This document shows positions 2,788 through 4,149 of a DNA stretch of 25,098 nucleotides, one piece after another. The stretch lies in UHGV virus genome UHGV-1632131. One strand, given 5' to 3'. The stretch is from a virus. Each line of letters starts with the position of its first letter. Position 1 is the first letter of the stretch. The position numbers and the translations under genes were made by a program. The notes below the pieces were generated by a model. It was not told the origin of the DNA. It made no database searches and was given only the letters and a program-made list of their open reading frames with translations.

Positions 2788-4149
2788 TTGAACAAGTCAG
2801 TTACTTCCGCGCTATCCGAAGCAGCAGACATTAACAGTGTTATTGCGCTGGTTTCTTCATTAGAGAGGCGAGAAACACGCCAGGGGCGCAGTAGTTACGT
2901 AGTCACCAGTAAAGGGGCAGAGGTAAAGACGGCTTTTAAGGTCGTTGATGCCAGCAGTCTGATCATTTCGAACAACCTTGACGGTACGATTAATCCGGCC
3001 TTCCCGGAAGAACTCCAGCCACGTGACCGTACACGGCTATCAAGCAAACTCCAGGTTAACCGTATTGCCTCCAATTTACGCCCGGCACAATTAACGGATT
3101 CCGGCATGAGCAGCCACGGAGCGCCGATAGTTGGTCCGGACAACGTTGTTGAATCCGGCAACGGAAGGAGCATGGGTATCTGGCGTGCCTATGAGCAAGG
3201 GCAGGCGGATGAATATCGCCAGTACCTGATCGATCATGCAAAAGAGTTTGGTCTGAATCCTGACGACATTTCACAAATGTCTATGCCCGTATTGGTGCGA
3301 GAAAGACTCACAGATGTAGACCGCGCACAATTTGCCCGCGATTCAAACATCAGCGATCTGCAAGAGATGGCTGCAAGTGAAAAAGCGTATGCGGATGCGC
3401 AATTTCTCACTGAGAGCGTCATGGCGCTATTTAATCCTTCAGATGATGGAAATCTACTGGCGCGGTCCAATGATGCGTTTATTCGTGCGTTTTTGCGCGA
3501 AATAGGTGATACGGCGACGGCAGGTTTGCTTACTGCCGATGGGCGTCCAACGAAACAACTTATCGACCGCATCCAGAATGCAATTTTTGCCAAAGCGTAC
3601 AAGGATGAAAGGCTTGTTCGGCTGGTGGCGGAAGAGCCAGATCCGGAAATGCGTAACATCCTTACCGCATTAAATACGGCAGCCAGCGATTTTGCGCAAA
3701 TGCAGTCACTTTCAGGCGATGTTCACCATGACACGGTAACCGGACTGGTAGACGGCATAGAGCAATTGAATGGTCTGGATAAACAGGCTATTGCCGCGCT
3801 ACAGGAAGCAATTAACCTTGTTCGTGAAGCAAAAGATAACGGTCAGGCAGTAGAAGAGGTGATCGCACAGCGCGGATTGTTTGGAGATAGCACTCCGGAA
3901 GCGGAAGCGCTTGCTCTGTTTATTGTTGCCAACAACAGAAGCGCTAAGCGTATGGGGGCCGCTTTCAAGAAACTGGCGCAAAAAATTAACGATGAGCTTA
4001 TTCACCAGCAACAAGCGTTAGGCGATATGTTCGGCGGCGGAGATGTCGATCTGCGTAGCATTTTGTCTGCCGTTTCCGATGAGATTGAAACTGAATTTGG
4101 TGAAGGGAAAGGATTGAGTCTTTCGATGTTCGAAAATAGTCATAGGTAA
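2788..4149 (+). CDS. ParB-like nuclease-domain protein (N-terminal ParB/Srx-like fold, C-terminal domain unknown)
   Basis: TTG start with AAGGGGA Shine-Dalgarno (2774-2780). N-terminal region resembles the ParB N-terminal nuclease/NTP-binding domain (INPAFPEELQPRDRT ... APIVGPDNVVESGNGRSMGI, i.e. a GxxR box). No ParA gene adjacent, so not a partition ParB. Confidence 0.5.
   Translation: MNKSVTSALSEAADINSVIALVSSLERRETRQGRSSYVVTSKGAEVKTAFKVVDASSLIISNNLDGTINPAFPEELQPRDRTRLSSKLQVNRIASNLRPAQLTDSGMSSHGAPIVGPDNVVESGNGRSMGIWRAYEQGQADEYRQYLIDHAKEFGLNPDDISQMSMPVLVRERLTDVDRAQFARDSNISDLQEMAASEKAYADAQFLTESVMALFNPSDDGNLLARSNDAFIRAFLREIGDTATAGLLTADGRPTKQLIDRIQNAIFAKAYKDERLVRLVAEEPDPEMRNILTALNTAASDFAQMQSLSGDVHHDTVTGLVDGIEQLNGLDKQAIAALQEAINLVREAKDNGQAVEEVIAQRGLFGDSTPEAEALALFIVANNRSAKRMGAAFKKLAQKINDELIHQQQALGDMFGGGDVDLRSILSAVSDEIETEFGEGKGLSLSMFENSHR

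Follow-up and report, generated by a model that had tools for sequence, protein, structure and literature searches.

A gene predicted to encode a short, D6-type DdrB head protein of the P1-type Dar antirestriction system

We predict that the gene at positions 2788 to 4149 of a 25,098-nucleotide stretch of virus DNA (UHGV virus genome UHGV-1632131, called the window here) encodes a short form of DdrB, a component of the P1-type Dar antirestriction system. Based on homology and synteny, the gene is almost certainly the ddrB orthologue of a D6-like, P1-family plasmid prophage, and its product is very likely carried in the virion. The overall explanation, which joins this identification to the mechanism proposed below, is in our judgment probable. 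The positions of the gene, its domains and motifs, and the surrounding Dar and head genes are given in Table 1.

Table 1. Positions of ddrB, its predicted features, and related genes in the window
Feature	Position	Strand	Description
darA	389..2326	+	NCBIfam NF052326 anti_RE_DarA, 1140 bits; Pfam DarA_N, DarA_C; internal head protein
ddrA	2326..2694	+	phrog_1855 DdrA-like anti-restriction protein, E 1.8e-47; synteny with D6 and P1
Shine-Dalgarno sequence AAGGGGAG	2774..2781	+	6 nt upstream of the ddrB TTG start; read from the sequence
ddrB, short D6 type	2788..4149	+	453 aa, 49.3 kDa, pI 4.8; predicted component of the P1-type Dar antirestriction system
Helical leader, aa 3-28	2794..2871	+	Resembles the DarB N-terminus; predicted capsid-targeting sequence
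DdrB-type ParB/Srx domain, aa 30-175	2875..3312	+	Pfam (aa 42-173), AlphaFold2, Foldseek
LQPRDRTR, aa 76-83	3013..3036	+	L76 Q77 P78 R79 D80 R81 R83 invariant
VESGNGR (GxxR box), aa 121-127	3148..3168	+	V121 E122 S123 G124 N125 G126 R127 invariant; strand-helix junction
All-alpha domain, aa 176-445	3313..4122	+	Two sub-domains, ~176-319 and 330-437 (AlphaFold2)
NNRSxK, aa 382-387	3931-3948	+	Invariant, in the all-alpha domain
SMFE/N, aa 446-450	4123..4137	+	Predicted Pro cleavage site, 4 residues before the stop
pro, prohead protease	5917..6912	+	D6 orthologue annotated 'head processing protease, similar to P1 pro'
darB	8875..15717	+	2280-aa methyltransferase/SNF2-helicase Dar effector; Pfam N6_Mtase, SNF2-rel_dom, Helicase_C
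ulx	15754..16188	+	phrog_1629 Ulx-like anti-restriction, E 2.2e-52

The ddrB gene and its operon

The reading frame, originally predicted from the DNA as an orphan gene for a ParB-like nuclease-domain protein, is a real gene. Its TTG start, which follows a strong Shine-Dalgarno sequence, is the start used by RefSeq on NZ_CP026818 and in the D6 annotation, and RefSeq calls a 453-aa gene of identical length on a plasmid 99.6% identical to the window. The RefSeq name of the product is 'hypothetical protein' because NCBIfam, which holds no model for DdrB, DdrA or Pro, offers no better label. The protein matches the Pfam family PF18763 (ddrB-ParB) at aa 42-173 (E 1.8e-42, 144.7 bits against a cut-off of 27.6) and profile positions 9-442 of 995 in phrog_2299 (E 1.6e-247). 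It is 98% identical at the amino acid level, and 94.7% at the nucleotide level, to D6 gp25 (ASR76386.1, 454 aa; 'similar to P1 gene ddrB'), which has the same length class and flanking genes. A BLASTP alignment of residues 4-450 to residues 2-442 of P1 DdrB (P1_gp022, 995 aa) is collinear, with 64% identity and 6 gapped positions. The P1 gene likewise follows darA-ddrA, and its product shares the PF18763 domain, the invariant motifs, and an [LM]FE/S site at ~440.

The protein therefore corresponds to the first ~442 residues of P1 DdrB, which continues for a further ~550 aa with a zincin-like, HExxH metallopeptidase-like half (HELGH at 872). This half is absent from the window gene, where the stop follows aa 453 and prt begins 71 nt on. 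Across the DdrB family the C-terminal extension is variable, being none, InPase, LPD3 or ART, and for this reason we take the HExxH half as non-defining for DdrB. Pfam detected no second effector domain besides the DdrB module in the 453-aa protein, making it a solo form rather than a polyvalent protein, a class to which DdrB relatives with InPase, LPD3 or ART fusions do belong.

At 99.6% identity to Shigella dysenteriae plasmids of ~80 kb, the window is, as judged from its sequence, part of a D6-like, P1-family plasmid prophage. It begins inside hdf and has the gene order lydA-lydB-hdf-darA-ddrA-ddrB...prt-pro in common with D6. Far from being an orphan, ddrB comes fourth in a late operon of the darA type, hdf-darA-ddrA-ddrB, whose gene order recurs in D6 and P1. 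Both darB and ulx lie further downstream in the window. The darB product also matches phrog_1685 and phrog_10089, 'DarB-like antirestriction'. The gene had been placed between coiled-coil proteins and a portal-like gene; the portal is confirmed (prt, starting at 4221; phrog_1497, E 9e-224), and the description of its upstream neighbors as coiled-coil proteins was imprecise, as these are DarA and DdrA. The three elements differ in detail around ddrB. Between ddrA and ddrB lie 12 nt in P1 and 93 nt in the window, P1 has hxr and an IS1 region downstream of ddrB where the window has the portal gene, and in D6 ddrB is separated from prt by two additional genes, orf24 (DUF4145-like) and orf23. The P1 LPdar/LPlyz pattern, which would mark a late promoter of ddrB's own, has no match in the whole window, even with 1 mismatch allowed, and a scan of 2300-4400 for promoters and terminators gave results not above shuffled sequences.

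An antisense ORF at 3234-3659, the equivalent of P1 'iddB', was also considered as a gene and rejected. It is 64% identical to P1 IddB; since D6 lacks this open frame, the ORF probably just shadows the sense frame.

Given that the product covers just 44% of P1 DdrB and is a RefSeq 'hypothetical protein', the 453-aa ORF could be a decaying, truncated and non-functional remnant of a long P1-type ddrB that has lost its peptidase half. We reject this pseudogene reading as highly improbable. The codon differences between ddrB and its D6 counterpart, 62 synonymous and 8 non-synonymous, indicate strong purifying selection; the start and ribosome-binding site are intact; and the protein ends at the exact conserved module boundary. 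Furthermore, 1121 sequences belong to the protein cluster P0001 (96% identical), and comparable solo forms (~440-485 aa) are found on numerous contigs of ~85-95 kb from Pantoea, Leclercia, Vibrio and Photobacterium.

The ParB-like and all-alpha domains

The ParB/Srx-fold N-terminus proposed in the original prediction, with a GxxR box in ESGNGRSMGI (aa 122-131), is supported by the Pfam match and by structural modeling. In the AlphaFold2 model of aa 28-180 (pLDDT 89.4, pTM 0.85), strands (aa 35-39, 45-54, 120-123 and 167-173) and helices (84-95 and 125-136) follow one another as they should in a ParB/Srx fold. The best PDB match to this model in Foldseek is a ParB-N domain, 5k5d, at an E value of 0.55 that is not significant. 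In BFVD, the matches that follow the DdrB-family proteins (ranks 15-47) are mostly named 'ParB' or 'ParB/Sulfiredoxin', with probability 0.8-0.94 and E 0.04-0.5. The modeled fold thus suggests a membership in ParB/Srx that is remote but consistent. Searching the PDB by sequence and by profile, with the full-length protein as well as its N-terminal and C-terminal domains, returned chance matches only, including a designed coiled coil.

Across 28 homologues sharing 44-85% identity, E122-S-G-N-G-R127, Y143, N187 and D190 never vary, and in the model G124-N-G-R127 lies directly after the strand at 120-123, at the start of the helix at 125-136. When compared by hhalign with seven real ParB proteins, LQPRDRTR gave a weak local match to the PNPYQPRK box. 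This match consists of the QPR box and the next helix only (P 0.021, 0.0052 and 0.0092 in three set-ups), and the GxxR box aligned with ParB GERR in one permissive run only. Because two permissive alignments disagree in the middle of the domain, we do not claim that the GxxR and ENLQR boxes are equivalent to those of ParB.

The N-terminal CTPase domain of partition ParB/Spo0J is like DdrB in its strand and helix order, in having a QPR box before the first helix, and in the location of the GxxR-box Arg at a strand-helix junction. Sequence similarity between the two is marginal (hhalign P 0.005-0.02), and DdrB has extra helices at aa 141-162 bearing the family-specific Tyr143. The presence of a superfamily domain with QPR-like and GxxR motifs on a plasmid prophage could suggest that the product is a plasmid-partition ParB, acting as the centromere-binding CTPase clamp of the prophage plasmid. 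We consider this extremely unlikely and reject it. As originally noted, there is no adjacent ParA; the neighbors are instead ddrA and prt, and the gene lies in a late operon amid head genes. DdrB has no parS and no HTH or dimerisation domain, and the Pfam HTH, ParBc and KorB families have no match in the 453-aa protein. In addition, D6 has separate StbA/StbB-type stability genes elsewhere, and P1 owns parAB while its DdrB orthologue is a virion protein.

The C-terminal part was originally described as an unrelated domain of about 300 aa. Its lack of recognizable relatives is borne out: neither Pfam nor the PDB sequences contain a match to the ~270-aa all-alpha part, the full-length AlphaFold2 model matched nothing in the PDB better than E 0.18 (all helical noise), and a Pfam search with 20 C-terminal domains gave no family in more than 4 members, all far below the cut-off. 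The sections consulted of the study of polyvalent proteins by Iyer, Burroughs, Anand, de Souza and Aravind (2017, PMC5512222) contain no description of this helical partner of the ParB domain. The word 'unrelated' does not hold, as the domain is collinear with P1 DdrB and is found in 257 of 257 homologues that have the N-terminal domain, a co-occurrence biased upwards by selection with a full-length query.

The all-alpha domain was modeled with pLDDT mostly between 80 and 90 and a low-confidence linker at 320-326; in two relatives, P0092 and P0102, an LPD3 insertion is located at this linker between the sub-domains. The domain is acidic, with a pI of 4.5. The acidity of DdrB as a whole (pI 4.8) is unlike the expectation for a non-specific DNA binder. 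Together, the ParB and all-alpha parts (aa ~30-445) appear to constitute one block that recurs inside giant polyvalent phage proteins, being present in proteins of up to 4813 aa, while more distant phage matches cover the ParB part alone. The DdrB-like ParB domains of polyvalent proteins belong to the same family and are likewise encoded by late or virion-associated genes (PMC5512222).

Predicted head targeting and processing

The N-terminal 30 aa of P1 DarB are sufficient for capsid targeting (PMC9024508). An hhalign comparison of 18 DdrB with 9 DarB N-termini gave a match with a probability of 83% (P 8.5e-6, score 29.5); none of 600 column-shuffled controls reached this score, the maximum being 19.5. 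The search for homologues of the DarB N-terminus yielded 16 proteins, mostly fragments, which was enough for this comparison. Among the six-frame ORFs of the window, the leader profile found DdrB and DarB alone, both of which are in the model, and the DarB segment with the motif is 8875-8958. The leader lies outside the block common to polyvalent proteins. On the basis of this similarity, it is reasonably likely that the DdrB leader is a targeting signal in common with DarB. Short amphipathic helices can look alike without a common function.

At the other end of the protein, MFE/N resembles capsid maturation sites, namely AMLE/SVAAEM in P1 gp23, where cleavage has been proven by Edman (PMC9024508), and AMFE/SVA in the D6 capsid protein. 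The motif [LM]FES closes the module in 87 of 180 homologues, and in a number of solo forms the chain terminates with ...MF, ...LF or ...WFE. P1 DdrB contains exactly one motif, GLFE/S, at the module boundary (aa 439-442). Homology of ddrB to D6 ends right after the SMFE codons, with C-termini of ...SMFEPTSVG in D6 and ...SMFENSHR in the window. Across the window there are 7 matches to the pattern [LM][LF]E[SAN], which fall in DarA, DdrB, Pro and PmgS and never in the 12 other proteins, compared to an expectation of ~1.2 over all 16 window proteins. The enrichment is confined to head proteins. Pro carries three copies (aa 169, 210 and 292), as does P1 Pro at matching positions. In DarA, EAMFE/S at aa 63-66 aligns with the P1 DarA site DLLE/A; a cut there, at E68/A69, would fit the observation that DarA residues 1-69 are invisible in cryo-EM of P1 (PMC12810830).

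We slightly favor the prediction, made from these sites, that Pro trims DdrB at MFE/N. D6 itself has SMFE/P, in which the proline after the site may block cleavage. A processed P1 DdrB of 76 kDa is cited by Iyer et al., who attribute the cut to the protein's own metallopeptidase domain (PMC5512222). This band is unexplained by Pro cleavage because the computed products of a single cut at P1 DdrB E441 are 47.9 and 60.9 kDa. Since Pro has no match by sequence to solved protease structures, we do not claim homology to T4 gp21, and we take its specificity from the sites only.

A parallel in outline exists in T4. The internal proteins IPI-III and Alt enter the procapsid by an N-terminal signal, gp21 cleaves behind a Glu within a short motif, and once ejected with the DNA these proteins counter host restriction (PMC9026906). 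They have no sequence relationship to DdrB, and in T4 it is the signal that is removed, whereas DdrB is predicted to be cut at its C-terminal end and would keep its leader.

Proposed role of DdrB and its significance

In P1, Dar protects the incoming genome from type I restriction and acts only in cis (PMC12707154). The other Dar proteins enter the head one after another, following Hdf and DarA, and are all lost without those two (PMC12810830), and Ulx helps DarB packaging. P1 DdrB was found in virions by mass spectrometry, with 39 unique peptides and 59.5% coverage (PMC9024508). Consistent with this, the original suggestion of a head-packaged anti-defence protein like the P1 Dar proteins is upheld by orthology to P1 ddrB. 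The other suggestion, a packaging accessory, is unsupported because P1 ddrB is non-essential (PMC10695390). An effect of P1 ddrB on plating on the type I restricting hosts EcoB and EcoK is reported by Piya et al. 2017, as cited in PMC12810830.

We propose that ddrB would be expressed late in infection from the darA operon, and that DdrB would enter the procapsid through the leader common to DarB, dependent, as in P1, on DarA and Hdf lining the inner shell. The Dar proteins packed in the head would leave with the DNA. Within the head, Pro would trim DdrB after Glu449 (SMFE/NSHR), at the type of site used in capsid protein and DarA maturation. In P1, a cut at GLFE/S would separate the ParB module from the peptidase half; with the cut falling at the module end, the short gene would encode essentially the mature module. 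After ejection, the ParB/Srx domain would work via a nucleotide-binding pocket marked by the invariant LQPRDR, ESGNGR and DSNxxD motifs, serving either as a switch that binds or hydrolyses NTP or as a DNase. We give this putative NTP-binding pocket about an even chance. DdrB would modulate the DarB-dependent arm of antirestriction (EcoB/EcoK), perhaps in part because the two proteins compete for one set of docking sites inside the head. Competition with DarB is a tentative suggestion that we hold to be rather doubtful. The idea relies on a ddrB knock-out phenotype reportedly described by Piya et al. 2017. [quoted passage not shown]

A role in DarB incorporation would suit a non-enzymatic adaptor or spacer in the head that sets the DarB and Ulx load, with the ParB pocket a relic. 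Such an adaptor could account for the N-terminal leader in common with DarB and for a C-terminal domain that is an acidic helical bundle without a catalytic signature. It is an unlikely alternative, given that LQPRDR, like the other conserved positions, is invariant across homologues of 44-85% identity and that the same block occurs inside giant polyvalent proteins of unrelated phages without DarB. Both observations argue for an activity of DdrB's own.

Alternatively, the ParB-like domain may be a metal-dependent, sequence-nonspecific DNase, like Osa or ParB-nuclease fusions, rather than an antirestriction nucleotide switch. Once injected, it would nick or degrade the DNA of the host or of a competitor, or prime phage replication. 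Iyer et al. name these roles and file the family under 'novel ParB-like DNases' (PMC5512222). The conserved Arg pocket is also found in ParB-type nucleases, and the viral fold matches include proteins titled 'ParB-like nuclease domain protein'. For the DdrB-type ParB domain, 'nuclease' is a family label. The same authors favor NTP sensing or degradation because no other DNase domain replaces or accompanies the domain (PMC5512222). Moreover, a nuclease packed against the phage's own DNA would need tight control, and the known P1 phenotype is restriction sensitivity, with ddrB dispensable for plaques (PMC10695390). We regard the DNase as improbable, to about the same degree as the adaptor.

We speculate, with little confidence, that the DdrB core is a self-contained head-cargo cassette, composed of a targeting leader, a ParB-like module with its helical partner, and a terminal Pro-site junction, and that it competes with DarB. 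If this is true, the Pro-site junction would be where P1-like phages swap effectors (zincin peptidase, pyrophosphatase, LPD3, or none), and the protease would free the parts of the cassette inside the head. DdrB-DarB competition would then allow the phage to tune the dose of injected antirestriction enzyme. As a finding, the identification of ddrB changes little, since earlier publications (P1 and D6 genomes, Piya 2017, Iyer 2017) already cover the gene, the family it belongs to and its part in the Dar system. It does allow a very common RefSeq 'hypothetical' protein to be named DdrB-like. The leader in common with DarB, the protease motif at the module boundary, and the fixed ParB and helical block bear on the loading and release of ejected proteins in P1-like phages, and are relevant to the use of P1 heads as protein-delivery vehicles (PMC9024508).

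ddrB and its neighbourhood

The best-supported account of DdrB, the 453-aa product of the ORF at 2788, is the known one: a component of the P1-type defence-against-restriction (Dar) system that is packaged in the head and co-ejected. The finding is already known, since the family, its domain and the orthologue in Escherichia phage D6 have been published. The gene order, hdf (cut by the window edge)-darA-ddrA-ddrB-prt-pro-repL-[CHAP, minus]-darB-ulx-...-pmgS-three tRNAs-...-lpa-pacA, is the P1/D6 arrangement. Over 99% of its length, the window is 99.5-99.6% identical to ~80-kb non-mobilizable Shigella dysenteriae plasmids. 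Hundreds of P1-like E. coli plasmids match it less closely. The original prediction sensed the gene rightly but framed it wrongly, as an orphan beside coiled-coil proteins. These upstream neighbours are DarA and DdrA, both encoded by Dar genes, and ddrB is therefore no orphan but an ordinary gene.

The ddrB frame is the sole long one in its interval, with TTG at 2788 as the earliest possible start and AAGGGGAG 6 nt upstream. RefSeq annotates the same gene in a 99.6% identical plasmid, and the annotation of D6 has an equivalent start. D6 is the closest phage (94.7% nucleotide and 98% amino acid identity for ddrB), and its 454-aa gp25 is labelled 'similar to P1 gene ddrB'. Of the testable features of a P1-type DdrB, the window protein lacks just one, the C-terminal peptidase half, which is variable.

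Other features of the region are collected in the table. No promoter or terminator was called above background in the ddrA-ddrB spacer. The antisense ORF within ddrB is closed in D6 and so is probably no gene but a shadow of the sense frame. Between ddrB and the portal gene prt, D6 carries orf24 (weakly DUF4145-like) and orf23, two genes that the window lacks (intervals compared: window 4150-4220 and, in the compared sequence L001, 7366-8509); window/D6 homology restarts ~58 nt upstream of prt, in a stretch that holds a conserved hairpin. Either the window or Shigella plasmid NZ_CP026818 (99.6% identical) may carry a frameshift in the repL-like gene, since this is a single frame in the former and two separate CDS in the latter. 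The 191-aa product of 21924-22499, whose RefSeq twin is named 'MW1434 family type I TA system toxin', is possibly encoded by an anti-defence gene of the prophage.

Features of the window and of the DdrB model
Feature	Nucleotides	Residues	Remarks
darA	389-2326		NCBIfam anti_RE_DarA 1140 bits; Pfam DarA_N, DarA_C
DarA motif sites	497-508, 575-586	37-40, 63-66	
ddrA	2326-2694		phrog_1855
ddrA-ddrB spacer	2695-2787		93 nt; 12 nt in P1
Hairpin at spacer start	2700-2716		GGGGC-TGAAAT-GCCCC, then TTTC
ddrB	2788-4149 (+)	1-453	
ParB-domain strands (model)		35-39, 45-54, 120-123, 167-173	
ParB-domain helices (model)		84-95, 125-136	extra helices 141-162
Antisense ORF in ddrB	3234-3659 (minus)	141 aa	64% identical to P1 'IddB'
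Hairpin before prt	4189-4214		CCGCGAAA-N10-TTTCGCGG; just 5' of prt ATG 4221
Pro motif sites	6421-6432, 6544-6555, 6790-6801	169, 210, 292	
repL-like lytic replication gene	7126-8121	331 aa	
CHAP-domain protein	8179-8685 (minus)		TIGR02594 family; between repL and darB
DarB leader	8875-8958	1-28	helical motif in common with DdrB N-terminus
VRR-NUC nuclease-domain protein	16611-17084		Pfam PF08774, E 6.6e-7; downstream of ulx
PmgS motif site	17836-17847	41-44	
tRNA genes Asn-GTT, Thr-TGT, Met/Ile-CAT	20205-20279, 20282-20357, 21319-21394		stretch otherwise ORF-poor, as in P1
Thoeris anti-defence 2-like domain protein	21924-22499	191 aa	Pfam PF11195, E 6.9e-11

A two-domain block and its short form

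The predicted ParB-like N-terminus and its GxxR box are real and far above chance, because of the Pfam score and the invariance of the motif. Residues 42-173 match PF18763, the 'ddrB-like ParB superfamily domain' (E 1.8e-42; 144.7 bits, cut-off 27.6), and V121 to R127, overlapping the box in ESGNGRSMGI (aa 122-131), are invariant in 28 homologues of 44-85% identity. The structure-prediction check proposed originally (AlphaFold2, aa 28-180, pLDDT 89.4, pTM 0.85) supports a ParB/Srx fold for the domain, far from partition ParB. In a PDB fold search (350,542 chains), the top match was the ParB-N domain 5k5d, not significant at E 0.55. Against viral models, 14 DdrB-family proteins rank first, followed mostly by ParB, ParB-like nuclease and ParB/Sulfiredoxin names (probability up to 0.94, E 0.04-0.5). 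An hhalign comparison with seven genuine plasmid ParB N-terminal domains found a short local match only, P(x)ELQPRDR and the following helix to PNPYQPRK and helix (P 0.005-0.02). One permissive run pairs ESGNGR with AGERR and another pairs DSNxSD...MxAxExA with ENLQRxDLxPxExA, never both; these equivalences are leads only. DdrB lacks the defining features of a partition ParB, and this rival candidate was rejected, as was a polyvalent protein for the window DdrB itself.

When 1.84 billion cluster representatives were searched, 6183 clusters passed E<=1e-3, of which 2045 reached E<=1e-30. Among the best 150 matches, a single unbroken alignment nearly always runs from query aa ~28-32 to ~440-450, often embedded centrally in a protein of 1000-4800 aa. 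Thus, the ParB domain and the next ~270 residues form one conserved block, with aa 1-28 outside it. The C-terminal part is present in 257 of 257 homologues that have the N-terminal domain, a figure that depends on their selection with the full-length query; farther phage matches cover aa ~32-183 alone. In the full-length AlphaFold2 model, aa 176-445 are all-alpha, in two parts joined by a low-confidence linker (320-326) that is the exact insertion point of LPD3 in relatives. This domain is acidic (pI 4.5), its invariant residues include N187, D190, E198 and NNRSxK 382-387 (28-homologue alignment), and Pfam, PDB-sequence and fold searches gave it no match.

P1 DdrB is longer, at 995 aa. Its residues 2-442 align with window aa 4-450 (BLASTP, 64% identity, six gapped positions), whereas its further ~550 residues, with HELGH at aa 872, have no counterpart in the window. 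That half is annotated 'possible metallopeptidase' and classed as a zincin-like MPTase by Iyer et al. (PMC5512222). In the window, the stop codon of ddrB and the portal gene lie 71 nt apart. A pseudogene reading could draw on this shortness; however, a decayed, truncated ddrB is ruled out by the purifying codon pattern relative to D6 (62 synonymous and 8 non-synonymous differences), the 1121 sequences of its 96% identical protein cluster (P0001) and solo forms of ~440-485 aa on Pantoea, Leclercia, Vibrio and Photobacterium contigs of 85-95 kb. In other relatives the additional domains differ: InPase and LPD3, at the C-terminus or as insertions, and an ART at the N-terminus.

Leader and proposed prohead-protease motif

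The N-termini of DdrB (MNKSVTSALSEAADINSVIALVSSLERRE) and of DarB from the same window (MDKLLNSINAATSIGGLIDLISRLHKPR) are similar. Profiles of 18 DdrB and 9 DarB N-termini align over DdrB aa 3-28 and DarB aa 2-27 (hhalign probability 83%, P 8.5e-6, score 29.5), and the scores of 600 column-shuffled controls stayed at or below 19.5. In a six-frame translation of the window, the leader profile matched no ORF besides DdrB and DarB. Because this region of P1 DarB is a capsid-targeting sequence defined by experiment (PMC9024508), we infer from the similarity that DdrB probably uses the same signal. BLAST found no consensus between Dar N-termini, according to the authors of that study (PMC9024508).

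P1 gp23 is cleaved between E120 and S121, as determined by Edman sequencing (PMC9024508), at NKAMLE/SVAAEM; the equivalent D6 capsid protein has GKAMFE/SVAQSM. The window DdrB ends in LSMFE/NSHR, and P1 DdrB has its sole such site, GGLFE/SVSGG at aa 439-442, exactly where the peptidase half joins the two-domain module. The motif [LM][LF]E[SAN] occurs at seven sites in the window (DarA 2, DdrB 1, Pro 3, PmgS 1), compared with ~1.2 expected over all 16 proteins from shuffles, and at none in the 12 other proteins, including the 2280-aa DarB. Its carriers in the window are head-assembly proteins only, and it is identical to the proven gp23 maturation site. P1 Pro has three sites at corresponding positions, and the D6 tail sheath has one stray site. 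The second DarA site, EAMFE/SIT, aligns with DLLE/AIS in P1; a cut at E68/A69 would fit the absence of P1 DarA residues 1-69 in cryo-EM (PMC12810830). [LM]FES closes the module in 87 of 180 homologues, several solo homologues end simply at ...MF, ...LF or ...WFE, and window/D6 nucleotide homology stops directly after the MFE codons. [quoted passage not shown] The pattern suggests that [LM][LF]E/[SAN] is the recognition motif of the prohead protease Pro, that Pro cleaves itself and that PmgS is processed. Against cleavage, D6 DdrB has a proline after the motif Glu. A single cut of P1 DdrB at E441 gives calculated fragments of 47.9 and 60.9 kDa, at odds with the 76-kDa processed form cited by Iyer et al. 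(PMC5512222).

Packaging and possible roles of DdrB

Dar proteins leave the head with the DNA and shield it from type I restriction (PMC12810830), in cis only (PMC12707154). DarA and Hdf are packaged first, and without them no other Dar protein enters (PMC12810830). DdrB was seen in purified P1 virions (39 unique peptides, 59.5% coverage; PMC9024508), and ddrB is non-essential in P1 (PMC10695390). Iyer et al. define the DdrB-like ParB domain from P1 DdrB, place it, solo or in polyvalent proteins, beside virion genes, and propose an NTP-regulated DNase or, likelier to those authors, a part in sensing or degrading NTPs early in infection (PMC5512222). A DNase effector is one less probable rival to the known account; another, a purely structural adaptor, can be set beside the role listed for DdrB, aiding the addition of DarB to the capsid (PMC9024508).

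As a head-packaged Dar component, DdrB would enter the head through its DarB-like leader, be trimmed by Pro and act via its predicted nucleotide-binding ParB pocket. It may also have docking sites in common with DarB, although we consider competition for them doubtful. Piya et al. (2017) reportedly found P1 to be less susceptible to restriction by EcoB and EcoK once ddrB was disrupted. Common docking sites would explain this phenotype, because loss of DdrB could then raise the DarB load. Competition conflicts with the role listed for DdrB, which is the opposite (PMC9024508).

Three modest additions are made here: the resemblance of the leaders, the protease motif and the constant pairing of the two domains in one block. 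None of them was found in the papers cited here by PMC number. We tentatively speculate that DdrB may compete with DarB and form a 'head-cargo cassette' whose effector slot can be swapped.
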